A DNA stretch of 64,000 nt from an uncultured Desulfospira sp. (lineage in GTDB: Bacteria > Desulfobacterota > Desulfobacteria > Desulfobacterales > Desulfobacteraceae). The position numbers were made by a program, and so were the translations under genes. Positions within the stretch are counted from its first letter, which is position 1. Every line of letters starts with the position of its first letter. This document shows positions 1,941 through 44,268 of the stretch, in pieces. The notes below the pieces were generated by a model, which worked only from the letters and a program-made list of their open reading frames with translations, ran no database searches and was not told where the DNA came from. The stretch spans positions 3,680,001 through 3,744,000 of the forward strand of contig OY760175.1 in assembly GCA_963663165.1 (NCBI GenBank), given 5' to 3'.

Positions 1941-2831
1941 TCAAATCATCTTGACCTTTAAACCTGGCGGATAAATTTCAAACCGGGGATGATCATCAGA
2001 ATTTCCCGCAATTATCCTGAACGTGACATAATGGTTCGTACTTTCTAAAAACACCTTGTTGGCGGGATCCGCAGTCTGCCAGGTTCCGTTAAGGTAAACT
2101 TCCGCCCAGTTGTGATATCCGGCCGGTTTGAGCAATGCATTGTTTTGGATGATATATCCGGCCATGCACCGGGCAGGAATCCCATCCGCCCGGCACAGGG
2201 CCGAGAACAGATACATAAATTCCGTACAGTCACCCTTCTTTTGATCCAGCGCATAGAGTGCGCCCTGTTCTTTGCCGTCATATCCATCGTACCTGAGGCT
2301 GCTGCTTACCCATTCATAGATTCTTTTGGCTGTCCCGGACCTGTTGTCTGCGACAAACTCTGCCGCCTTTCTTTGAATCCGGTCATTATCGGATTCAAGA
2401 TATTTTTGGGCAGATAAAAATGGTGCGGGATCGGGAAGGCGGCATGAATTGGGGATTTCGGCCAGCTTCATATGGACCGTAACCGTGATGATCCGGGTAT
2501 CGTAAGGGGCGATCACCCCAAGGGGGAACTCAAGGACCTGGTTGTGAAGGGAATCTTCTACAGAAACAAATTCATGGGATGATTCTATCAGGGTACAGCT
2601 TTGGGACGGGGTCCTTTTTACCGGGGCATGGGCCTTGAGGAGCGCACCGGTAACCACGGTCCCTCTTGGATTTTCAATGGAAAACCGGTACTGAATCTGC
2701 CTTGAGACAGGATAAACCGCCGTCCCTTCTCTATGGGAAACAGCGGCCGGGCCGCGGCTGAAATAAAAGAAAGCGGCACCCGCTACAACCATACCACATA
2801 TGATAAAGACAAGAACACGTTTAAGGTCCAT
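1941..2831 (-). CDS. Membrane-anchored transglutaminase-like superfamily protein
   Basis: N-terminal TM helix; Cys-His-Asp triad motifs GDCTEF, HNWAEV, ADP. Confidence 0.85.
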   Translation of the reverse strand: MDLKRVLVFIICGMVVAGAAFFYFSRGPAAVSHREGTAVYPVSRQIQYRFSIENPRGTVVTGALLKAHAPVKRTPSQSCTLIESSHEFVSVEDSLHNQVLEFPLGVIAPYDTRIITVTVHMKLAEIPNSCRLPDPAPFLSAQKYLESDNDRIQRKAAEFVADNRSGTAKRIYEWVSSSLRYDGYDGKEQGALYALDQKKGDCTEFMYLFSALCRADGIPARCMAGYIIQNNALLKPAGYHNWAEVYLNGTWQTADPANKVFLESTNHYVTFRIIAGNSDDHPRFEIYPPGLKVKMI

Positions 2832-3182
2832 AAACCGCTCAGTTCATCGCTCCGGCAGAGGCATCAGGGCACAATGGATCCGCTCCGGTCAAATTCAGCC
2901 GATTATGTTTAATTCACAAATGCTTTCGATTATTATGCATTTTTCAGACCGTTTTAAACGAACCAACAAATTTTATTAAAAAAATATTAAAACATATTGA
3001 ATTTCAAAACAATTATCATCTCTACGGCACATCCGGCTTTCAGGACAAAACGCATTCTTGATTCTGAATTGTGAAAAAAAATTTACAAATTAGGTAAAAC
3101 TTTTCACAAAATACAGAACCCGGGAGCCACGAAACGGCATATACGGTATTGCCGGCAAGGGCAACATTAATCAGGACCCCTG

Positions 3183-3386: not shown

Positions 3387-3776
3387 GTAACTGTTCAGCA
3401 GTGCCCCACCTTCGCTCATTCAGGCCTTCTCACATAGCAACAGTATGCTACGAAGCCCTGACTAACGGCCACGGGCCGATTGGATTGTTAATCCGATTCG
3501 GCCCACAACAAATAATGAAACTGAAGATACCGGCAACGGCAGGCTATAAATTGGGCGCCGCAGGTGCTTCGCCCTCTTGTCTCTTGTTTCTTGTCTCCAG
3601 TTTCTTATAAACAGCCACGGGCTGATTTGGTTATCCAACCAAGATCCGCCCACAACAAATATTGAAAGTCTTTACGGGTAGTTAGTCAGACTTTCATATA
3701 AAAACAAATATGAAGCACTGATGAACAGTTACGGACCCTGGTTTTGCTTAGTTTTCAGCATTAGCTGAAGAGTTAC
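3387..3776. mobile_element. Non-autonomous MITE with IS66-like (GTAA) ends, 390 bp
   Basis: Left end GTAACTGTTCAGC; right end 3764-3776 revcomp GTAACTCTTCAGC; perfect 8-bp TSD TTGAAAAT at 3379-3386 and 3777-3784; extra internal right end at 3715-3732. Confidence 0.8.
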
Positions 3777-28644: not shown

Positions 28645-28732
28645 AATAAGCAAGAAAAAGCCACACCCGGGGAAACCCGGGGTCGGAAAGCCAGGGGCCC
28701 TGCTCTTGTCAGATAGTCAGAACTGCCCGCGA
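28645..28732 (+). ncRNA. GEMM-I (cyclic di-GMP-I class) riboswitch-like element
   Basis: GCCACACCCGGG-GAAA-CCCGGGGTCGGAAAGCC...GATAG...TGCC; P2 and junction fit the consensus, P3 pairing is weak. Confidence 0.55.
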
Positions 28733-28917: not shown

Positions 28918-31900
28918 ATGTTGACTCAGTGTATGTTGTCTGGAAAATTTCGGCGGACAGCCGTTTTTTTCTTCATGGCGCTGGTTGCTCTGTGTTCAGG
29001 ATTCTGTTCTTTGCCGGTCCAGGCTCAAATCGACCTGGGCTGGGAGCAGCTGGACACACCGGAACTGCCCCCCTCTATTAAAGCCTATAAAAGCACCGCA
29101 ACCCTTCCGGACGGATCAGCGGTTCAAGCCTGGTATACCATTATCGATCTCAACGACCCCAATGTCGAGATTGATGTGGCATATCCGGGACTGGAAAACA
29201 CAAACCTCACACCGGTCGAGGAGATGAACAACTCCGAAGAACCCGTATATGTGGCCACCAACGGTACCTTTTATAATACCACCACCTATGCATCTGTATG
29301 CCCGATTGTGGATGACGGCAAGATCCTGATACTGCCTCTTCAGACCGCCACTTCCGATGGGGTTACCTACTACCCCACAAGAGGGCTATGGGGGATGAAC
29401 TCGGACCGGGAAAGTCAGGTGGTCTGGGCATTTGGATCCACCGATGACAATCAGATCTTCGCATATGAGGAACCATACCCCAACAGCCTGCTGGAAGATC
29501 CCCTTCCCATGCCGACCCTGGATCCGGCCCAGGATTATGCCCCTGACGGACGGGCCATTCCCACCGGTTATGTTTATGAGCCTGCCGAAGCCATGGGAAG
29601 CTACGGCGTCCTGATCAAAAACGGTGAGGTCCTGGACTATGATTCAACCGATACGGATAATTGTGCACAGGATCTTAACTGCCACTACTGCAACGAACTG
29701 CTGGGCACCAATTTGTCATTTACCCGCCATCCCCGTACGGCCATTGGAACAACCATGGACCGCAAACATATCATCCTCCTGGTGGTTGATGGCCGGTCTG
29801 TGAATTCCGTGGGTGCAACACTGGAAGAACTGGCTGAAATCATGGAAGGAATCGGCGCCTATGACGCACTGAACCTTGACGGCGGCGGCTCCACATCCAT
29901 TACTGTGAACAACTTTGACGGGGTTCTTGAAGCGCCTTCCACCGGTAACGGGGACAACAGCTCCGACGTTCTGAACACGCCCAGCGACGGGTATATGAGA
30001 TCGGTTTCCAATTCCATTTTGATCAAACGCCGGCCCCTATATTTTGATGCCGACACAGACCAGTCCTACTATACGGAAGAAGGAGACGGCTGGTTCCCCA
30101 CCGGGAATTCCGGATCTTATCCCGATGATGACAGCCCCACGCGGCTTGTTGCTACCGTGGGTACAGATGCTCAAGGAACTGCCACGGCGTCCTTTGCCCT
30201 TGAAGGAATCGTGCCTGCTGAATACGAATTGAGCGCATATTGGGTCGGCGCGCCTAACCGGGCCGACAACGCCCCCTTTACCATTGAAAGAAACGGGTTT
30301 GATTCGACGATAGTCCGCATGGACCAGACCGATGCCGATACCCAGTTCAACAAGATCGGTACGTACCACTTAAGCGCCGATGACATCGTGAAGATCACCA
30401 ACAACGCAGACAACGATTATGTTGCCATCGACGCCTTGCGCCTGCGTTATGTTGGGGAAAGTACCCCAACGGTTACGTTAGGGTCTTCTTCCACCATGGC
30501 TGCCATTCAGAGCCAGAAGATTCAGCAGAGCGTCACTATCAGCTCGCCCAACAGCGCGGTTTTTCCCACAAAGATCAATGTGTATAAATCTGTCGATGAA
30601 GGGGAAGAAACACTTTTTGACAGCGTTGATTTTTCCGGTACCAGCCTGACCGAAACCTACACCCTTGACTATGAGGTGACCGAAACCCAGAATTCAACGG
30701 TGACATTCCGGTTTGAGGTAAAGGACAACCATCGCCATACGGTGATGACCAGCATGGATATCAATGTCATGGCCTTCAGCCTGACCTTTGATCCTGAGGA
30801 TCTGGATTCAAGCATGGAATCCGGGGATTCCCTGGCGTTCAACATCAACCTGGATACCGGCAGCCCTGAGGTCACCATGACCCGTCTTACGGTCTATGTA
30901 TCCAGAAACGGCGGGGATCAAGAAATTTATCAGTCCTATGACCTTTCCGCTTCCAGTGAAACCATTGCCTTCAGCTATCTTGCAGAAGACGAGGCCGGAA
31001 ATGAACTGACCTTTACCTTTGTGGGAACCTCCTCGGACGGCAGCCAGTCTGAAACCACCTACACGGTTGCCATTGAGCCGGCAAAGGGGGATTTTACCAT
31101 CGGGTTTATCTCAGACATGAACGGATCCTTTGGCTCCACCACCTATGATTCCTACGTACAGGAAGCCGTGGCCCTGTTTGTCAGCCAGGGTGTGGATCTG
31201 GTGATCAGTGCCGGTGACATGGTGGCAGGGCAATGCTCGACTGCTTCAACCTGTGATGAAGCCGCCATGTGGGAAGGGTTTGACACCGCGATTTACAGTC
31301 AACTCAAGGATGCCGGCATTCCCTTTTTGTTCACCCTGCAGAACCATGATGCCGGGAACAGCTGGGACCTTTCCGCAGCCATTGAATTCTGGACCGATAC
31401 GGACAATGTCCCCCAGGGCACGACCCTGACCATGGTAGATGATACGGATTACCCGAAAAACTACTCTGCTGTGCTGGATTTTGACGGAGACGGAACATAT
31501 GACATCTTTTTTGTTTCCGTATTCAACCCGGGAGACGACCTTGATGAGGATGAGCTGGCCTTCCTGGATGCTACGCTGCAATCAGAAGAAGCCAAGTCCG
31601 CCCGCCTGCGGATCGTGGATACCGGGCAGCCCCTGTACGCTGTAAGCAACCCTAGAAACTCAGCAGGCTATGTCACCGGCCCCAGGGATGAAATTACCCA
31701 AATCCTGCGCGACCGTAACGTGGACCTGTTTGTTTCAGGGGACAGTGCCGCATATTTTCCGGGCAAACGGTTTGATATCAAGATGCTGAGCCTGGCTGAA
31801 ATGGGCGGAACGGGCAAGGCATACATCGGCGAAGACCAGGTGCCGCCCACGGCTGTTACCTGTGCGAACATCTTTAAAAATGACGACTATTACGGTGAAA

Positions 31901-34900
31901 ATGCCATTGTTTTAACCACCTACGACATCTTAAATGATTTTGACATTGTCAGAAAAGAGACCCTGCCCAAAACCCTGATCGGTTTTGATGATGAATTTAT
32001 CATCCGGGATGATACCCCCATCACCAACAGCGGGGCCACCGAGCTTTCCTCCATGAACCTGACCGAGCCCTTTGCCTCAACTGCTGCGGGCAGTGCCACC
32101 ATGATTGTGGGAGACGATACGGTCACCATCCAGGGCTCTTTTTCAGGCCTTGGCGCTTCGCTTCTTTCAAGCTTTGACGCCATCGGCCTTTACCGGGGAC
32201 GAAACGGCGAAGACGGAGAACTGGTCCAGACCCTGGATGTAAAAACCACAAACGCCCTTTCCGGAACCTTTTCGGCAAGCTATGCCAGAACCACGGAAAC
32301 CCTTGATGCTCTGGCCGCAGGACTCTATTACATCCAGATCAATACAGCTGATCTGCCGACAGGTGCCTTAAGAGGCCAGCTTTACAACACTGAAACCAGC
32401 AATGCGCCGGAATCCATCACTTTTACAAACACGGATTCAGGAGATACAGTCAGCGTGCGGAATGTGTCTGCCCTCCTGATTGTTGAATGGACCACAGCGG
32501 AAGATAAAGAAAAATCCCCGGTCACTTATACGTATCAGCTTTCCACATCGGCTGACTTCAGCGAGGGGAGTCTGCTGGTCAACGCCTATGTGGGAACAAA
32601 CAACTATTACCAGGGAATGACCGAAGCCCAATGGCTGGCTCTTCTGGATGGAAGCAGCGAAAAAGTGCTTTACCAGAGAATCATTGCCAGTGACGGACAG
32701 ACCATTGTTATCGGCCAGGCTCAGGAAATCAAATTGACGGAGAACTCAAATCCCGTTGAAGGTGAGGTCACGGTAGAAGCGCCCAACTTCCAATACCAGG
32801 GGATCTTTGCCACCCTGGGTACCGGGTTCACCGTGTATGACATTGCCATTGACGAAACCACCGGCCGTATCTGGGCCAACAACTATTACCATGGTCCTTA
32901 CTGTTTTAATACGGATGGAACCATTCACAAATTCTCTGATTCCGGCATCGGATACGGAACCGATGCCAACGGCAACGATTTCATCAACGCCATAGACTTT
33001 AACGGCAATACCTTTTCCGACGGATATTGCTATGGTGTGGAGTATGACCCGGACGGATATATTCTCGTGGTAACAGACGGCAACCTGTTCAAGCTGGATG
33101 CCTATACCGGCAAGCCGGTTGCCTTCTGGGATTCTCCCACCAGCATAGGCTCCAACCCGTCCATGGCCGATGACAAATCGGTTTTCATGAGTAATGTTTA
33201 CCCGGGCAATGCCGCCTATATTGTTAAACCCAGCAGCACTGTGCAGGGAGAATACGACATTGTTACGGATTTTGGAACAAGCCTTGCTGTATCCGGCAGT
33301 GTAACCAGAACCTCAGCATACTCTCCTGAAGGCGACCGCATTTATCTTGTTCCCACCTCATCCTCCCCTTATGTTTCCGTGTATGCCAGGGTCGACGGCG
33401 AGTGGGTCAGACAGGACAACTTTGAAATGCCCGCATCCACAGGTTCCGACGCCGTGTATGCCGGTGAAAACCAGACCATGTGGGTGATCAACGAAAAAAG
33501 CACCAACCCGCCCAATCTAATATATGTGGATTTTACCAATCAGGAAACCTGGAATCTCTATCTTGAAGATATAGAAGAATCCGATATCCGGGCCATGACT
33601 GTAAGCCGTGACGGTAAAACCGTTTATGTCGGCGGCAGCACGGCCATTTATAAATACCAGGTGGTCGAAGAAGGCACTCAAGAAGATCCAAGCCTGATTT
33701 CCCTGAGCCAGGCCACTGCCCTGGATGATGATGATTCTGCACAGCTTCTGGGCGAAACCGTCAGGGTTCAGGCTGTGGTCACCACATCCAACCTGGCGGC
33801 AGACGGCCTGGAATTCTACGGCGAAGATGCCGGCGACCAGGTAAAATTCTTTGCGGGCACTGTAGTTGACGGGTATACCCCCAAAGCCGGAGACCTTGTT
33901 GAGGTCAAGGGACAGGTCCTTGAAACCCTGGGACAGGTGTACATCCAGCCCGAAAGCATTGAGCTGGTATCCCAAGACCAGCCCCTTGCCCGTCGCCCCC
34001 TGGTGACTGAAATCGGGGAGGATCAGGAGTCCCAGGTGGTTATTATCCCGGGGATTTCTTTGACCGATGCGGATCAGTGGACCAACGATGGATTCTTTGG
34101 TTTTGAGGTGACTGCGGCCAAAGAAGACGGATATTCCTTTAACCTGTTCATTTCCAAAGGCACGGATATTTTTGGAAACGAAGCCCCTGAAGGAACGTTT
34201 ACCGTAACCGGCGTGGTTCAGCAAAAAGGAGATGAGTACATTGTAACCCCTCTGTCCACCATGGATATCGGGCTCGAAGGCCAGGTGAGTACCGCCATGA
34301 TGACCAAATACCTGCCCGCCACCAGCAACCGGGTCACCTTCAGGGCCACTGCCGCCAGATCCCTTGGCCGGGTGAAAACCAGTGCCTATTCCTGGTACCG
34401 AAACGGTTTTCAGGTGGATTCCGACAATGACTGGGAAACGGTAACCGGACGGTTCTATGCCTGCCGGAACCTGAATTACGGCGACGTGCTGGTTGCTCAT
34501 GTAACCACCGCGGACTCTGTTTACCCATACGCATCCATTCCTTTTGCGCTTGGCATGGCTCCGGAACTTTCGGCAGATATAACGGACAACGCCCCTGGCG
34601 AAACCATCACCATCACCTTTGATGAAAACCAGAAATGGGCAGCTGCCATTGAAAAGATCGTCCTGGTTTCAGGAGATCAGGAAATCCTCATCTCCCAGAT
34701 GGGCGGTGAAGGCGAACTCCAGGGCCAGGAAGCGGAAAATCTTGCCCAAAAAAGTGTTGAAGTTGATTCAGCGCAGTATACAGTAAACACCACCGGTATT
34801 GTATTCAGCGCTGAGACTTTTGACCAGGTCGGGACTTACACCGTAATGGTGTATGCGGACGGTTACCGCCTGAATACAGTGGATCAGGAGATCCTTACAG

Positions 34901-37377
34901 CCTCTCCAACTGTTGAAACCGACAATGAGGACAATGACCTGCTCAATGATATCGTCATTACCTTTGAGCCGGATGAGGACTGGGCAGCAGCCGTGACCGG
35001 GGTATTCATCAATGGAACCGCCCTTGAAGCCGGTGACTACACCATAGAAAACGGGCAGCTGATCATCTATGCCGGTGTTTTCCCAGGCGCAGGAACCCTG
35101 ACGGTAACAGTTGAGGCTGACGGCTACACCGACAGGACCTTTGAACAGACCATTGTTCTGTCTACGCCGCCTGCCCTGACCGCTGACACCACCGATAATG
35201 TGGTGGGCCAGGCCATTGAAATTGAATTTGAGGCCAATGCCATCTGGCAGGGCTATATCACTGAAGTCCTGGTGAACGAATCGCCCCTGTCTTCAGATGA
35301 CTATACCATCGACAACGGTGTTCTCACCCTTGTCCCAGGCGTGCTGGGCCAGGTCCGGGAGTACGTCATCACCGTATCGGCGGACAACTTTGACGACACC
35401 GAAGTGGCCCAGCCGGTACTGGCCGCTACCGTGCCTGAGCTGATCCCAGCAGAAGATGTCTCCATCTTTGATGATGTGGTTATTACCTTTGAGGATAATG
35501 CGGCCTGGCGGTCGACTGTCCTCTCCGTAATCGTGGACGGGGAAGCACTGGATTCCAGCGCATGGACCCTTAACCAGGGAAATCTTGTCATTGCAGCCGG
35601 AACGTTTTCAGAAGCTGGCGATTATGAGATTCAGGTAACCGCTGGTGTTGCCTACCAAGTGGCTACGGTCACCCAGACCATTAACGCCCCTGAATATACC
35701 GTTTCCGGAACCGTGACCATGGATGGTTCAGCTCTGGCTTCCGTGGATATTATCCTGGACCAGCTGCTGGAGATGGATTTTGAAGGGAATCTTAACGATA
35801 CCAGCGGCAACGGCAATGAGGCAAATTCAGCCAATGTCCCGGTATATGATGACGATGCAGACCAGGGCCAGATTCTGGATTTTGACGGGTCTTCGGATCT
35901 GGTGAACCTGCCTGACTTTGTCCTTGAAGGAGACTACAGCATCAGCCTCTGGCTCAACCCGGATGTTATTGAAGGGACACAGGGCACAGGGTCTTACAGC
36001 CGCTCTTTCATGGCCTATTATGAGGACAGTGACAATGCCTTCAGGTTTACCATTGAGAACGGATATATCATCGCCTCCATCATCTCAGGCGGCGAAGAGG
36101 TCGGCGTGGGAACCCCTTCGGGCTCGCTTACAGCAGACCAGTGGGTCCATGTCACCATTGTTGTCAAAAAAGGAAAACAGGCGCGGGTTTACCTTGGCGG
36201 CCAAGATCAGACCGATTCTTCCTACGCCTGGAGCCGGGGCACGGATGCAGGGCTTACCCTGGGAGCCAGAAACAGTGGAGGCGGCCATTTCGACGGCCAG
36301 ATGGACAGCCTGATGATCTGGAACCGGGCCCTGACGGCAGAGGAGGTTTCTGATCTTGCCTCTACCGGAAAAGGCCCCAGGGTGGTAACTGGTACCGATG
36401 GGACCTACACCGCCCAGGTCTACTACGGCAAGGACCTGATCCTGAAACCTGAGTTCTCAGGTGTTACGTTTACGCCTGAAATGGCAGGTTTCACCAATAT
36501 CCAGGCCGATATCACCCAGAATTTTACCGGTGAGGGAGAAGTTTCCCTGGCCGTCCCCAACCCAATTGCCAACATGTCGGTGGACACCTCATCCGATCTG
36601 GTGATTGATCTTTCCGCCATGATGGCAGATCCTTCAGATCCACAAGCCCAGGTGTCATACACCCTGGTTTCCAACAGTGATTCTGATTTCATAAATGCCG
36701 TTATTTCCGGTACTGAACTGACACTGTCCTTTAAAGAAGTGTACGGAAAGGCATCCATTGAAATCAAGGGCACGGCCAACGGGAAAGAAGGGTCTGACAG
36801 TTTTATTGTAGAGCTCAATCCCTATTGTGAAGCTGGGGGCGGAGGCGACTGGGAGTATATCTTTGAGGTGAACCTGATCGGCTCTGACGATACCGACCTG
36901 ATGACCAATGAATCCGGCCAGACTCAGTACAGCAATTACCGTTACAGTTCAATCACCCAGGTAACTGCCGGAGAAACCATTACCCTGCGTGTTTCCAGCA
37001 AAGACTGGTCTAGCGACGAGGTTTTGGCCTGGATCGACTGGAACCAGGACGGAGACTTTGAGGATGACGGGGAGACCTACACAGTTGGTACAGGATGGGG
37101 AACCGAGACCCTTGGCACCTACCTGCACGCCTGGTCTTATGACATAACCGTACCCGAAACGGCCAAGACCGGTAAAACCATGCTCAGAATCCGCCACCAT
37201 GACGCCAGCGCAAGCGGTGCCAACACCACCCCCTGCGGCAGTTCAAGTTATGGGGAAGTGGAAGACTACGGTCTGGATATTCAGGCGGCTGCCGGCACGG
37301 ATGACACACAGGTTGAAGCGGCTTCTTCTGCCAGTACCACAAAAAGCCGCGCCAAGGCAGTAAAAAAGAAAAGATAA
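28918..37377 (+). CDS. 2819-aa secreted multidomain protein: NAGPA-like phosphodiester glycosidase, golvesin-like, Ig-like, calcineurin-like phosphoesterase, CHRD, SusE-like, beta-propeller, OB-like, DUF1533-like repeats, LamG, GEVED
   Basis: Signal peptide; HPRTAIG/LNLDGGGST; SDMNG/AGDMV/NHD; GLYYIQINT..GALRGQL; PPALTADTTDN..YTIDNG repeats; QWVHV..FDGQMD..IWNRALT; AWIDWNQDGDFED..GEVEDY. Confidence 0.85.
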   Translation: MLTQCMLSGKFRRTAVFFFMALVALCSGFCSLPVQAQIDLGWEQLDTPELPPSIKAYKSTATLPDGSAVQAWYTIIDLNDPNVEIDVAYPGLENTNLTPVEEMNNSEEPVYVATNGTFYNTTTYASVCPIVDDGKILILPLQTATSDGVTYYPTRGLWGMNSDRESQVVWAFGSTDDNQIFAYEEPYPNSLLEDPLPMPTLDPAQDYAPDGRAIPTGYVYEPAEAMGSYGVLIKNGEVLDYDSTDTDNCAQDLNCHYCNELLGTNLSFTRHPRTAIGTTMDRKHIILLVVDGRSVNSVGATLEELAEIMEGIGAYDALNLDGGGSTSITVNNFDGVLEAPSTGNGDNSSDVLNTPSDGYMRSVSNSILIKRRPLYFDADTDQSYYTEEGDGWFPTGNSGSYPDDDSPTRLVATVGTDAQGTATASFALEGIVPAEYELSAYWVGAPNRADNAPFTIERNGFDSTIVRMDQTDADTQFNKIGTYHLSADDIVKITNNADNDYVAIDALRLRYVGESTPTVTLGSSSTMAAIQSQKIQQSVTISSPNSAVFPTKINVYKSVDEGEETLFDSVDFSGTSLTETYTLDYEVTETQNSTVTFRFEVKDNHRHTVMTSMDINVMAFSLTFDPEDLDSSMESGDSLAFNINLDTGSPEVTMTRLTVYVSRNGGDQEIYQSYDLSASSETIAFSYLAEDEAGNELTFTFVGTSSDGSQSETTYTVAIEPAKGDFTIGFISDMNGSFGSTTYDSYVQEAVALFVSQGVDLVISAGDMVAGQCSTASTCDEAAMWEGFDTAIYSQLKDAGIPFLFTLQNHDAGNSWDLSAAIEFWTDTDNVPQGTTLTMVDDTDYPKNYSAVLDFDGDGTYDIFFVSVFNPGDDLDEDELAFLDATLQSEEAKSARLRIVDTGQPLYAVSNPRNSAGYVTGPRDEITQILRDRNVDLFVSGDSAAYFPGKRFDIKMLSLAEMGGTGKAYIGEDQVPPTAVTCANIFKNDDYYGENAIVLTTYDILNDFDIVRKETLPKTLIGFDDEFIIRDDTPITNSGATELSSMNLTEPFASTAAGSATMIVGDDTVTIQGSFSGLGASLLSSFDAIGLYRGRNGEDGELVQTLDVKTTNALSGTFSASYARTTETLDALAAGLYYIQINTADLPTGALRGQLYNTETSNAPESITFTNTDSGDTVSVRNVSALLIVEWTTAEDKEKSPVTYTYQLSTSADFSEGSLLVNAYVGTNNYYQGMTEAQWLALLDGSSEKVLYQRIIASDGQTIVIGQAQEIKLTENSNPVEGEVTVEAPNFQYQGIFATLGTGFTVYDIAIDETTGRIWANNYYHGPYCFNTDGTIHKFSDSGIGYGTDANGNDFINAIDFNGNTFSDGYCYGVEYDPDGYILVVTDGNLFKLDAYTGKPVAFWDSPTSIGSNPSMADDKSVFMSNVYPGNAAYIVKPSSTVQGEYDIVTDFGTSLAVSGSVTRTSAYSPEGDRIYLVPTSSSPYVSVYARVDGEWVRQDNFEMPASTGSDAVYAGENQTMWVINEKSTNPPNLIYVDFTNQETWNLYLEDIEESDIRAMTVSRDGKTVYVGGSTAIYKYQVVEEGTQEDPSLISLSQATALDDDDSAQLLGETVRVQAVVTTSNLAADGLEFYGEDAGDQVKFFAGTVVDGYTPKAGDLVEVKGQVLETLGQVYIQPESIELVSQDQPLARRPLVTEIGEDQESQVVIIPGISLTDADQWTNDGFFGFEVTAAKEDGYSFNLFISKGTDIFGNEAPEGTFTVTGVVQQKGDEYIVTPLSTMDIGLEGQVSTAMMTKYLPATSNRVTFRATAARSLGRVKTSAYSWYRNGFQVDSDNDWETVTGRFYACRNLNYGDVLVAHVTTADSVYPYASIPFALGMAPELSADITDNAPGETITITFDENQKWAAAIEKIVLVSGDQEILISQMGGEGELQGQEAENLAQKSVEVDSAQYTVNTTGIVFSAETFDQVGTYTVMVYADGYRLNTVDQEILTASPTVETDNEDNDLLNDIVITFEPDEDWAAAVTGVFINGTALEAGDYTIENGQLIIYAGVFPGAGTLTVTVEADGYTDRTFEQTIVLSTPPALTADTTDNVVGQAIEIEFEANAIWQGYITEVLVNESPLSSDDYTIDNGVLTLVPGVLGQVREYVITVSADNFDDTEVAQPVLAATVPELIPAEDVSIFDDVVITFEDNAAWRSTVLSVIVDGEALDSSAWTLNQGNLVIAAGTFSEAGDYEIQVTAGVAYQVATVTQTINAPEYTVSGTVTMDGSALASVDIILDQLLEMDFEGNLNDTSGNGNEANSANVPVYDDDADQGQILDFDGSSDLVNLPDFVLEGDYSISLWLNPDVIEGTQGTGSYSRSFMAYYEDSDNAFRFTIENGYIIASIISGGEEVGVGTPSGSLTADQWVHVTIVVKKGKQARVYLGGQDQTDSSYAWSRGTDAGLTLGARNSGGGHFDGQMDSLMIWNRALTAEEVSDLASTGKGPRVVTGTDGTYTAQVYYGKDLILKPEFSGVTFTPEMAGFTNIQADITQNFTGEGEVSLAVPNPIANMSVDTSSDLVIDLSAMMADPSDPQAQVSYTLVSNSDSDFINAVISGTELTLSFKEVYGKASIEIKGTANGKEGSDSFIVELNPYCEAGGGGDWEYIFEVNLIGSDDTDLMTNESGQTQYSNYRYSSITQVTAGETITLRVSSKDWSSDEVLAWIDWNQDGDFEDDGETYTVGTGWGTETLGTYLHAWSYDITVPETAKTGKTMLRIRHHDASASGANTTPCGSSSYGEVEDYGLDIQAAAGTDDTQVEAASSASTTKSRAKAVKKKR

Positions 37378-37692: not shown

Positions 37693-38074
37693 TAAACCGG
37701 CCAGGACCTGAAACTTCTGATTAATGTACTGTTACCGCGTTCCCGGAATCCTGTAATTTGTTGTAGTAAATAATCAGCTATGTTGATTGGCATGTCAAAG
37801 TAAATTTTAGTGAAATTCAAGGCGCAAGCGAAAGTTTTAAATAAGCTGTAGTGAACTACTGCGTTTTAAAACTTTTGTGCAGCAACGCTGAATTTCGCAA
37901 AATTTACGCCGACATCAAAGAATTTAAGTTTATCTGTGGAAAAAAGTGGCTAAGCCTCACGACCTATTAGTACCGGTAAGCTCAACATGTTACCATGCTT
38001 ACACACCCGGCCTATCAACCTTGTCGTCTTCAAGGGGTCTTCAGTCCGAAGATGGGATATCTTATCTTGAAGTT

Positions 38075-38107
<33 letters not shown>

Positions 38108-38296
38108 GTACCCAACTTGGCTACCCAGCAATGCCCCTGGCGGAACAACTGGAACACCATTGGTTGGTCCAATCCGGTCCTCTCGTACTAGGATCAGATC
38201 TCCTCAAATATCCTGCGCCCACGAAAGATAGGGACCAAACTGTCTCACGACGTTTTAAACCCAGCTCACGTACCACTTTAATTGGCGAACAGCCAA

Positions 38297-38354
<58 letters not shown>

Positions 38355-38385
38355 GCCCCGTCGATGTGAACTCTTGGGGGCGATA

Positions 38386-38424
<39 letters not shown>

Positions 38425-38863
38425 CGGCCCTTCCATTCAGAACCGCCGGATCACTAAGACCTACTTTCGTACCTGCTCGAAATGTCTCTCTCGCAGTCAA
38501 GCTCCCTTATGCCTTTGCACTCTATGGCTGGTTTCCAATCAGCCTGAGGGAACCTTCGCGCGCCTCCGTTACTCTTTGGGAGGCGACCGCCCCAGTCAAA
38601 CTACCCACCAGACACTGTCCCAAGTCCGGGTTACGGACCATGGTTAGAACACTGAAATATGAAGGGTGGTATTTCAAGGGTGACTCCACCTGTACTGGCG
38701 TACCGGTTTCCTAGTCTCCCACCTATCCTGCACATCATATCCCAAAATCCAATGTCAAGCTGTAGTAAAGGTGCCGGGGTCTTTCCGTCTTTTCGCGGGT
38801 AGACGGTATCTTCACCGCCATTCCAATTTCGCTGAGTCCCTGGTTGAGACAGTGTGGAAGTCG

Positions 38864-38945
<82 letters not shown>

Positions 38946-39658
38946 TGGGGCTTCGGTTCAGTGCTTCGCTTACGCTAACAAATCCCCTTAACCTTCCAGC
39001 ACCGGGCAGGCGTCAGACCCTATACCTCGTCTTGCGACTTTGCAGAGTCCTATGTTTTTAGTAAACAGTCGCTACCACCAATTCTCTGCGGCCCCCAACA
39101 GCTTATTGTGTATACAAATCACCATCAGGGGCATACCTTCTCCCGAAGTTACGGTATCATTTTGCCGAGTTCCTTAACCAGGGTTCTCTCAAGCGCCTCG
39201 GGATACTCTCCCTGCCTACCTGTGTCGGTTTGCGGTACGATCACCTGTTATCTCGATAGAGGCTTTTCTTGGCAGCATGGGTGCAGTCAGTTTATGGGGT
39301 AAACCCCTCCTCATCACTTCTCGGCCTTAGAGTTCCGGATTTGCCTAAAACTCCAGCCTACTAGCTTGAACCGCCTATTCCAGCAGACGGATGACCTGCC
39401 CTCCTGCGTCCCCCCGTCTCTCAAACGATAACAAGGTGGTACAGAAATATTAATCTGTTTTCCATCGACTACGCCTTTCGGCCTCGCCTTAGGGATCGAC
39501 TAACCCTGAGAAGATTAGCTTTACTCAGGAAACCTTGGGCTTACGGCGAGCGGGCCTCTCACCCGCTTTATCGCTACTCATGTCAGCATGGTCACTTGTG
39601 CAACCTCCACACAACCTCACGGTTGCGATTCTTCGGCGGCACAACGCTCTTCTACCAC

Positions 39659-40086
39659 CAAGAAACTAGATACTGGAAACAAGAAACAAGACCTTAACTG
39701 TATCGGTTGATTAAGCCTCGCAGCATTCTTCCGATCTCCTGATATCTTTGATCAAAAAAAGTTTGGTCTTGTTTGCTCAAATACTCAAGGTCTCTTGAAA
39801 ACTCCAGCCATACCCGGCTTTCGTCACATGATCCCATGGCTATTTGAACGAATCTTCTTACATCAGCTTTACTGGATTGCTTGCCCATCCCTTCTGCAAT
39901 ATTTGCCGGGATAGATTTGCTTGACTTCCTTAGTTGTTGAGCCAGTTCATACTGCTCATGCTGGGGAAATCTTAGACTTACTTTGTGCACTTCCAACGCT
40001 AACTGATAAGACTTTTTAAAAACTTCAAGTCTATGGTAAGGCATCATCGCCCTCCTTGTTTCTTGTCTCTAGTATCTAGTTTCTTG
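39659..40086 (-). other. 23S rRNA intervening sequence 1 (helix 45 position), ~428 nt, ORF-bearing
   Basis: Between ACGCTCTTCTACC and CCGCAGCTTCGG; 32-nt inverted arms (30/32 match) built of 7-mers. Confidence 0.92.
39694..40047 (-). CDS. Four-helix-bundle protein (23S rRNA IVP family, Avd-like fold)
   Basis: LEVFKKS..FPQHEQYELAQQLRKSSKSIPANIAEG..IAMGSCDE; AAGGAGG RBS; same strand as the rRNA. Confidence 0.93.
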   Translation of the reverse strand: MMPYHRLEVFKKSYQLALEVHKVSLRFPQHEQYELAQQLRKSSKSIPANIAEGMGKQSSKADVRRFVQIAMGSCDESRVWLEFSRDLEYLSKQDQTFFDQRYQEIGRMLRGLINRYS

Positions 40087-40170
40087 ATCCGCAGCTTCGG
40101 TACTATGCTTTAGCCCCGATACATTTTCGGCGCAGATCCACTCGACCAGTGAGCTGTTACGCTTTCTTTA

Positions 40171-40201
<31 letters not shown>

Positions 40202-40245
40202 TTGTCTGGGCATTCCCACATCCTTCTCCACTTAGCATAGATTTG

Positions 40246-40278
<33 letters not shown>

Positions 40279-40698
40279 CTCGTCCGCGGAACTTAGCTCC
40301 CGCGGGCTGACTCCTGCACTCTAACTTATCGGTATTCGGAGTTTGGTTAGGTTTGGTAATCTGGTGAGACCCCTAGCCCATCCAGTGCTCTACCTCCGAC
40401 AAGAAACGTGCAAGGCTATACCTAAATATATTTCGAAGAGAACCAGCTATCTCCAGGTTTGTTTGGCCTTTCACCCCTATCCACACCTCATCCGAACAGT
40501 TTTTAACCTGTGACGGTTCGGGCCTCCACGAGATTTTACTCCCGCTTCACCCTGGACATGGATAGATCACCTGGTTTCGGGTCTACTCAATACAACTTTC
40601 GCCCTGTTCAGACTCGCTTTCGCTTCGGCTACACCTATCGGCTTAACCTTGCTATATTAAGTAACTCGCTGACTCATTATGCAAAAGGCACGCGGTAA

Positions 40699-40835
40699 CC
40701 AAGAGACTAGAAACAAGAAACTGGAAACAAGATTTCGAACACTCGGTAACTTCCGGTGCCTGTTCAGCCCATTTAAATTGGGCGCCGAAGGCGCTTCGCC
40801 CTCTTGTATCTTGTTTCTTGACTCTAATCTCTTGG
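40699..40835 (-). other. 23S rRNA intervening sequence 2 (helix 25 position), ~137 nt, no ORF
   Basis: Between AAAAGGCACGCGGTAA and CTCCCACAGCTTGTA; 34-nt inverted arms (28/34 match) of the same 7-mer family. Confidence 0.88.
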
Positions 40836-40866
40836 CTCCCACAGCTTGTAAGCAAACGGTTTCAGG

Positions 40867-40918
<52 letters not shown>

Positions 40919-41706
40919 GGTTCGCTATCGGTTGCCAAGTCGTATTTAGCCTTATGTGATGGTCCACACTAATTCCCACAGAATTCCTCGTGTTCCGCAG
41001 TACTTGGGAGTACAATCAGGAGATCGATTATTTTCGCTTACAGGACTGTCACCTTCTTTGGTTAAGCTTTCCAGCTCATTCAACTAATAATCAATTTTTT
41101 TACTCCTGGAATCATCCGAAACTGATTCGCATGCATCCCGCGACCCCGATAACGCAACGCTTTCGGGCTTACACGTTACCGGTTTGGGCTGGTCCCCGTT
41201 CGCTCGCCGCTACTTGGAGAATCGTTTTTACTTTCTGTTCCTGGGGGTACTAAGATGTTTCAGTTCTCCCCGTTACCCTCCTTAACCTATGGATTCAGTC
41301 AAGGATGACACAGTATTGACCGTGTCGGGTTGCCCCATTCAGAAATCTCCGGATCAATGGGTGTTTAGCCCCTCCCCGAAGCTTATCGCAGCTTTCCACG
41401 TCTTTCTTCTTCACTTGGCACCAAGGCATCCGCCGTTTGCTCTTAGTAGCTTAGCCACTATTCCACAAATAAACTTAAACGCTTTGATGTTTTTGAAAAA
41501 ATTGCGATCTTCGGCGTTGCTTCACAAAATTTTTAAAACGACATAGCCTACTATGCCTTATTTAAAAATTTTGTTCGCGCCTTGAAGCTCATCAATTTTT
41601 TCTTCAACATAGCTCGCAAAAGTCTGATCAACATCAAACTCTCACGATTTATGATTAATTCAGTTGCCTTTACGGCAACTGCGCAATTGATATTTACTAC
41701 AACAAA

Positions 41707-41719
41707 TTTTCAAAGAACA
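41707..41719 (-). promoter_or_regulatory. Spacer boxA antitermination site
   Basis: Revcomp TGTTCTTTGAAAA; leader boxA TGATCTTTGAAAA at 43450-43462. Confidence 0.75.
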
Positions 41720-41805
41720 TGACAGATCCGGCTACTCTTGTTCACCGTTTTGATCTCTCAAAATTGGCCAGTGATAGCCTTAAAGCTTTTTTTATCTTTC
41801 CTTTG

Positions 41806-43737: not shown

Positions 43738-44268
43738 ATGACCTCCCGGGTATATACGGACGCATCTTCCGCCATCCTGCTATACAAAGCCGGTTTGTTC
43801 GGCATGACCGCATCCCATTTTCAAATGGTTCTCACCCCTGGCGTCTTTGTTGAAATTACCCGGCAGGGGCATGACGGGGCAGAATATTTTTCCCGTTTTC
43901 AAAACCTTTCCATAGAGCCCCCGGACCCGTCCATTGGGACTGTCGGCCTTGAAAACGCCCTGTCCCTGGACTTAGGGGAAAAAGAAACCCTTTTACTCTT
44001 TTTACAGCAGAACAAGCTCCAAACAGCCGGTTTAAACCGGTTTATTCTGGTGGATGACGGGCCGGCCGCAAAATTCTGCAAGGCCCGGGGCCTTCCTTTT
44101 ATCAATGCCCTTCTCGTCCCCAAAATTTTAAGGCTCTCCGGCCATATGAGCCTGTCCGGCTGCGATGAAAAAATGGACCTTTTATCGAAAATAGGGCGGT
44201 ATTCTTCAACCATCCTTAAAAAAGCCCGCGAGCTAACGGCACAGGATCTGGATTATTTTATAGATTAA
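43738..44268 (+). CDS. PIN-like (DUF3368-type) protein
   Basis: VYTDASSAILL, LDLGEKETL, ILVDDGPA. Confidence 0.6.
   Translation: MTSRVYTDASSAILLYKAGLFGMTASHFQMVLTPGVFVEITRQGHDGAEYFSRFQNLSIEPPDPSIGTVGLENALSLDLGEKETLLLFLQQNKLQTAGLNRFILVDDGPAAKFCKARGLPFINALLVPKILRLSGHMSLSGCDEKMDLLSKIGRYSSTILKKARELTAQDLDYFID

Follow-up and report, generated by a model that had tools for sequence, protein, structure and literature searches.

A gene-carrying intervening sequence with heptamer arms in helix 45 of a Desulfobacteraceae 23S rRNA gene, a likely selfish cassette

The helix-45 insert and its host operons

The window, the whole 64,000-nt stretch of DNA analysed here (G000:C1:3680001-3744000), contains a 23S rRNA gene with two inserts. 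The features are listed in Table 1. The larger insert is an intervening sequence (IVS) that interrupts the loop of a 23S hairpin (Rfam LSU model positions 1206-1226) that we take to be helix 45. Two of the three rRNA operons in the genome are filled with this IVS and the two copies are identical (428/428). The third operon has an 18-nt hairpin instead, and its 23S gene is 2974 nt long. Comparison with this empty operon (432 nt against 18 nt) revealed no target duplication. Apart from the inserts, the sequence of one filled operon equals that of the empty operon, which fits gene conversion between operons.

Table 1. Positions of the described features, in window coordinates.
Feature	Position	Strand	Remarks
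Host 23S rRNA gene	37946..41456	(-)	3511 nt including two inserts
Helix-45 intervening sequence (IVS)	39657..40088	(-)	432 nt in place of an 18-nt hairpin
5' arm, left stem strand	40055..40088	(-)	four and a half 7-nt units, type C[AT][AG]GA[AGT]A
Shine-Dalgarno AAGGAGG	40051..40057	(-)	7-nt match to the 16S 3' end of the same operon
ORF, 116 aa, 13.8 kDa, pI 9.5	39694..40044	(-)	four-helix-bundle, PF05635, TIGR02436
3' arm, right stem strand	39657..39690	(-)	A.C mismatch at pair 19, G.U at pair 22
Second insert, helix 25	40697..40835	(-)	139 nt, no ORF, same heptamer arm type as the helix-45 IVS

A first-pass annotation of this locus described a 23S insert with an ORF between heptamer arms. 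The insert is real, as the fold, the ORF, the identical second copy and public contigs all attest. These contigs, from four runs that represent at most three samples (X19 and X22 being one) and two studies, with one possibly the source of the assembly, bridge both IVS junctions with 0 differences. They cover 39628-40117 (X19 and X22, with 31 flanking letters on each side) and 39562-40116 (X20, with 97 and 30), and support the placement of the insert in the rrn locus. In X19 and X22 the IVS is identical to that of the window and present at low depth (21.5 and 8.5). The dominant 23S contigs of these runs differ; they have an empty helix with a loop equal to that of the congener G012. The population is probably mixed.

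The arms at 40055-40086 and 39659-39690 are 32 nt long, 94% complementary and built of 7-nt units. Their predicted pairing gives an RNA stem of 34 bp. The IVS folds with a z-score of -6.6, and 0 of 100 shuffled sequences folded as well. Among 11 aligned IVSs, 8 terminal-stem pairs are changed on both sides. For 25 distinct in-register stems the figure is 10 of 34 columns, a count that omits the out-of-register stems L093 and L099 (29 columns with both included); the covarying columns are not independent events because they are partly in 7-nt register. On the rRNA strand of the in-register stems, G.U cells outnumber A.C cells by 50 to 19, with pair 22, a G.U in 24 of 27 stems, alone providing about half of all G.U cells. 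This excess favours selection on an RNA helix, among sequences that are related. The genome encodes RNase III (242 bits). No promoter-like or terminator-like site was found in 39500-40300, and no intron family reached its gathering score in the window. A group I intron with a homing endonuclease was rejected: no intron core was detected, and the ORF matches only PF05635 and, weakly, bAvd.

The second insert, missed by the first-pass annotation, lies in a hairpin near Rfam model positions 573-600, presumably helix 25. Its 5' half resembles a genome-dispersed repeat. This repeat, of ~110 nt, gives 56 BLAST hits (window positions 3547-3606 and ~50 other places in the genome), and has an arm and an adjacent GC hairpin in common with the insert. 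A rule that helix-25 and helix-45 inserts occur together did not hold; helix 45 is filled and helix 25 is short in a second carrier genome (G062) and at three metagenome loci.

Other features of the operons and the window were recorded. The 16S genes of the three operons are identical and the three 16S-23S spacers are 349, 559 (with tRNA-Ile and tRNA-Ala) and 411 nt long; the spacer in the window (41457-41805) has no tRNA. A 176-aa ORF with no Pfam match (43738-44268) lies upstream of the 16S gene and is encoded on the other strand. A c-di-GMP-I riboswitch (28650-28710) precedes a 2819-aa mosaic protein (28918-37377) with phosphodiester glycosidase, metallophosphoesterase, CHRD, Shr-like, LamG and GEVED domains.

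The encoded protein and its translation signals

The ORF matches PF05635 with 116 bits (cut-off 33.8) and TIGR02436 with 115 bits. An upstream ATG at 40047 gives an ORF of 117 aa (40047-39694), the length first reported. The second ATG, at 40044, is the start common to relatives. The first ATG is separated from the Shine-Dalgarno (SD) sequence by 3 nt and the second by 6 nt. This points to a likely product of 116 aa, one residue shorter than the protein first proposed. As previously described, the stop codon lies 3 nt before the 3' arm, and the ribosome binding site overlaps the end of the 5' arm. The SD starts 32 nt into the insert, and just its first 3 nt take part in this overlap. All three carriers in the family retain a 7-nt SD match. 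The GGAGG core is predicted to form a local hairpin with codons 2-4 (unpaired probability at most 0.05), and its predicted pairing is equal with and without the 3' arm. Hence, the suggestion that the stem limits translation finds no backing in these predictions.

Solved relatives of the protein are PDB entries 2gsc (Xcc0516; E=1e-13) and 2rld (BT_0352), with five chains per entry. Both are four-helix bundles, as is Avd (4dwl), and they are the best sequence and fold matches. The predicted structure has four helices (pLDDT 79.6). A fold search with this model, made from a 5-sequence alignment, gave no match at E <= 0.001; 2gsc and 2rld ranked top with large rmsd. The protein is likely to be a five-subunit ring that binds nucleic acid. 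The pentamer is suggested by 2gsc, 2rld and the available text of a Coxiella study (PMC4990558), and nucleic-acid binding by homology. Assignment as a diversity-generating retroelement (DGR) accessory protein Avd was rejected, with scores below the cut-offs for NF033474 (36 of 80 bits) and PF22296 (26.9 of 40 bits). No reverse transcriptase was found within 130 kb of either IVS copy, among 11 such matches in the genome.

The ORF has evolved under strong constraint. For the three pairs of family carriers, dN/dS is 0.070, 0.051 and 0.095. The dS of the IVS ORF is 0.9-1.7, compared to 1.5-2.0 for host gyrB in the same pairs; for recA, the dS between G000 and G062 is 1.29. Since the IVS dS is near that of gyrB, the insert has either long been present in the family or was transferred in the distant past, and recent transfer within the family is not supported. 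GC3 is 0.40 for the IVS ORF and 0.64 for host gyrB. The ORF decays in places: one of the two IVS copies in G062 is frameshifted and the ORF of locus L072 has three stops. Taken together, the low dN/dS (0.05-0.10) and the position of the SD inside the stem suggest that the protein is likely made here, unlike that of Coxiella. In RNA runs X1-X4, only the rRNA flanks of relatives were found. Joints across the insert site in these runs were considered as religation and rejected; they have other short loops and are empty alleles of other organisms.

Relatives, arm units and dispersed arrays

An IVS-type ORF is present in 3 of 161 family genomes, belonging to three genera. Among family genomes with the 23S region assembled (flank match E < 1e-100), carriers number 3 of 40. 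The proteins in the two other genera are 84-88% identical and encoded at the same site. In G062, 2 operons are filled and 3 are empty; in the congener G012 none of the three operons is filled. Two further genomes, G021 (4/4 matches) and G016 (1), have a helix 45 of 25-26 nt with a stem equivalent to the outer arms of the IVS. These short helices look like deletion scars, or may represent the pre-insertion form. The G016 helix is at C319:2111-2150; at the four places in G021 the loop is the ordinary empty-helix loop. In a sample of the phylum, 4 of 401 genomes were matched at 1e-30.

The genome scan contributed 8 loci and the metagenome scan its best 80 of 118. After removal of 11 repeat fetches or same-genome copies, 110 loci were left, with near-copies among the metagenome rows. 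Within this set, all 41 loci at >= 60% identity are in 23S genes (38 in helix 45, 3 in helix 25). At 40-60% identity, 34 of 53 loci are at helix 45. Below 40% identity, none of 16 is in rRNA. The closest loci (>= 60%) span several phyla. Named hosts include beta- and gammaproteobacterial MAGs; a Planctomycetaceae MAG has the same arm unit as the window IVS and a protein of 46% identity. A tree of 96 proteins groups the close relatives in one clade of 32 rows, each from rRNA, with 98% SH-aLRT support; this is a quick tree of 121 columns supported by SH-aLRT values only. No relative was found among 85 pattern matches in a scan of viral contigs. One other 23S insert was encountered, at helix 25 of genome G135 (L061:893-1188). 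It is a 296-nt IVS with non-heptamer arms and encodes an 82-aa GIY-YIG protein (PF01541, 48.7 bits).

Inverted short-repeat arms are the rule for PF05635-type genes. An arm score of at least 30 was obtained for 66/70 rRNA loci, 25/33 non-rRNA loci and 14/19 non-rRNA family loci. Conversely, the swapped-pair control reached this score in 12 of 342 cases. The exact fit of the ORF between heptamer arms, stressed by the first-pass annotation, is thus present but not special, since 14 of the 19 homologues of the family outside rRNA are likewise armed. The type of arm unit tracks the protein clade. The unit of the window IVS, in at least 2 tandem copies, occurs at 37 of 38 scorable loci at >= 60% identity, at 3 of 32 more distant rRNA loci and at 0 of 33 non-rRNA loci; non-rRNA locus L157 has a near-match.

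One gammaproteobacterial 23S gene, L071, contains two different four-helix-bundle cassettes (1412-1927 and 2533-3044), each with its own arm type. The helix-25 cassette belongs to the window clade. The helix-45 cassette has other arms, and its protein is 49% identical to that of the window. With two arm types in one gene, L071 offers a ready specificity control. Its helix-25 cassette is nested in an older hairpin insert.

The G000 genome has other four-helix-bundle-type genes outside rRNA, at C1:1448345-1448674, 4153705-4153974 and 2501870-2502082. The repeats beside these three genes are 7-nt inverted arms, 9-nt arms and a 7-nt array that is upstream only. An origin of the IVS from the gene at 1448345-1448674 was rejected, given 36% identity, another arm unit and a distant branch.

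Arrays of the heptamer also occur away from the gene. G000 has 117 arrays of at least 3 units, compared to 0 in a 2-Mb Markov simulation. Of its inverted array pairs, 6/8 are outside rRNA, and the loops are 9-152 nt long. Of 112 family genomes, 25 have the array pattern. In a set of 36 family genomes that are near-complete and have the 23S region assembled, arrays are present in 3/3 carriers and there are none in 26/33 non-carriers, where the counts for carriers include their own IVS arms and kin genomes are not independent. Non-carriers with many array matches include G012 (58) and G002 (27).

Likely fate and role of the cassette

The locus is an ORF-bearing IVS of the kind known from Leptospira and Coxiella, as was first suggested: the helix-45 hairpin is replaced, and there is a terminal stem, a sense PF05635 ORF and a sporadic presence. 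The closest likeness is to the helix-45 IVS with an S23p ORF of Coxiella burnetii, described in the available text of Warrier et al. 2016 (PMC4990558). Both lie in helix 45, measure ~430-440 nt and have a terminal stem of ~30 bp with a mismatch, a sense S23p/PF05635 ORF and tandem heptamers ahead of the start codon. Heptamers in front of an IVS ORF were thus already known. The two elements differ in several respects (PMC4990558, available text). The heptamer units are not the same, going by the published description rather than an alignment. The Coxiella SD precedes the repeats whereas that of the window IVS is at the inner end of the arm. The Coxiella ORF is decaying; conversely, the window ORF is under strong purifying selection. 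The window IVS also differs in filling 2/3 operons of a free-living sulfate reducer and in having a companion helix-25 insert.

The Leptospira 23S IVS is likewise in helix 45, sporadic and equipped with a conserved family ORF (Ralph and McClelland 1993, 1994, cited in PMC4990558). Horizontal transfer between species was shown there, whereas the family studied here has no sign of recent transfer. In CPR bacteria, 23S_rRNA_IVP and GIY-YIG ORFs are reported in rRNA insertions, with IVP ORFs at several rRNA sites and with ORF-bearing and ORF-less forms at the same sites (PMC11270868). The available text of that report mentions neither heptamer arms nor clade-matched units. Similarly, the available part of a paper on heptamer repeats (PMC4679880) makes no mention of the PF05635-type family. 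Our literature search, with most subscription journals outside its reach, found no such IVS described in Desulfobacteraceae and no paper that connects heptamer arms outside rRNA with four-helix-bundle genes.

We consider it likely, with a probability of roughly 0.6, that the gene-carrying helix-45 IVS is a selfish cassette with a stem cut by RNase III and a protein that serves the cassette. On our best reading of the sequence comparisons, it would be a selfish, rRNA-resident branch of a larger set of four-helix-bundle/inverted-heptamer cassettes. Going by work on Coxiella and Salmonella, the IVS would be co-transcribed with the rRNA operon, RNase III would cut the stem without religation, and the freed RNA would decay fast. 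The 23S rRNA would then be split yet working, and a short RNA released. In Coxiella, RNase III cuts in the stem ~9 and 15 nt from the ends with no religation, and the freed IVS RNA decays in minutes (PMC4990558, available text). Since the SD of the window IVS begins 32 nt into the insert, a cut of this kind would spare it, and the freed RNA is likely to be translated briefly and at a low level into the four-helix-bundle protein. The filled operons should yield pieces of ~0.62, 0.61 and 1.71 kb and the third operon an intact 2.97-kb 23S. The first-pass annotation had named intact 23S retaining the insert as a refutation of the IVS reading. Intact 23S as such would not refute it, because the third operon is empty and intact 23S is expected from there. 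A mixture of intact and split 23S in total RNA can mislead RNA quality scores.

In its available text, a preprint reports that the pentameric DGR Avd binds an RNA stem-loop (bioRxiv 10.1101/2023.10.23.563531); by analogy, the protein pentamer likely binds RNA. It would work for the cassette, not for the ribosome, and binding to its own heptamer stem is the most likely means. Service to the cassette rather than to the host is suggested by the patchy distribution. The cassette may be kept by recombination and gene conversion through conserved rRNA flanks, and lost by empty-allele replacement or internal deletion. Several points count against this reading: the Coxiella protein was not detected in vivo (PMC4990558, available text), the SD core is predicted to be occluded, the ORF decays in places, and the IVS dS gives no sign of recent transfer within the family.

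Most of these points bear on an improbable, though not negligible, alternative, in which the IVS is an inert passenger, excised by RNase III, with its RNA degraded, its protein no longer made and just the stem kept. The paired SD core, the frameshifted G062 copy, the stops in L072 and the arm-only helices in G021 and G016 all point this way, and the available text of PMC4990558 argues it for Coxiella. However, dN/dS is 0.05-0.10 over a dS of 0.9-1.7, the three family carriers retain the 7-nt SD match, and the SD here is inside the arm whereas the Coxiella SD precedes the repeats and is cut off. The constraint on the ORF would also suit a host-beneficial protein made in step with rRNA synthesis, for instance an RNA chaperone that acts when ribosomes are assembled or rRNA is turned over, as would the basic protein, the sense orientation within a highly transcribed RNA and the confinement of the whole clade to 23S. 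The first-pass annotation leaned towards such a link to ribosome synthesis. We regard a host purpose as distinctly unlikely, because the gene occurs in 3/161 family genomes (3/40 with matched flanks) and in 0/3 G012 operons; moreover, 19 scored homologues of the family are outside rRNA and most have the same arm packaging.

The IVS might also remain unexcised, as a large external expansion of the mature 23S with an ORF that is read rarely or from precursor RNA. The available text of a review notes an unprocessed IVS in an rnc mutant with no detected effect on ribosome function (PMC8708148). Against this, the 34-bp stem is near perfect, the RNase III gene is intact, and described IVSs of this kind are excised (PMC4990558, available text), so we give persistence in mature 23S very little weight. 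Finally, rRNA operons are hard to assemble, but an assembly artefact or chance repeat is already refuted by the identical second-operon copy, the bridging contigs and the occurrence of related proteins at this site in two further genera; its likelihood is practically nil.

A more speculative extension of the selfish-cassette reading can be put forward tentatively. The IVS may be the helper form of a self-recognising mobile cassette, with an Avd-like ring protein that is produced from an RNA among the most abundant of the cell, binds its own 7-base unit and promotes copying. Such copying would, equally tentatively, extend from full cassettes, at helix 45 or 25 in several phyla, to derivatives that lack the gene, among them the helix-25 insert and the 117 G000 arrays. 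The tracking of protein clade by unit type and the distribution of arrays between carriers and non-carriers favour this proposal. Conversely, it is disfavoured by the matches in G012 and G002, and by the fact that no mobility enzyme was found.

The window IVS extends a 30-year-old kind of element to a family of sulfate reducers. It is also a test case for what S23p/PF05635 proteins do: a single genome has both filled and empty operons and, unlike in Coxiella, purifying selection acts on the ORF and the SD is intact. If true, the helper proposal would assign a function to S23p proteins and account for a class of bacterial heptamer repeats.
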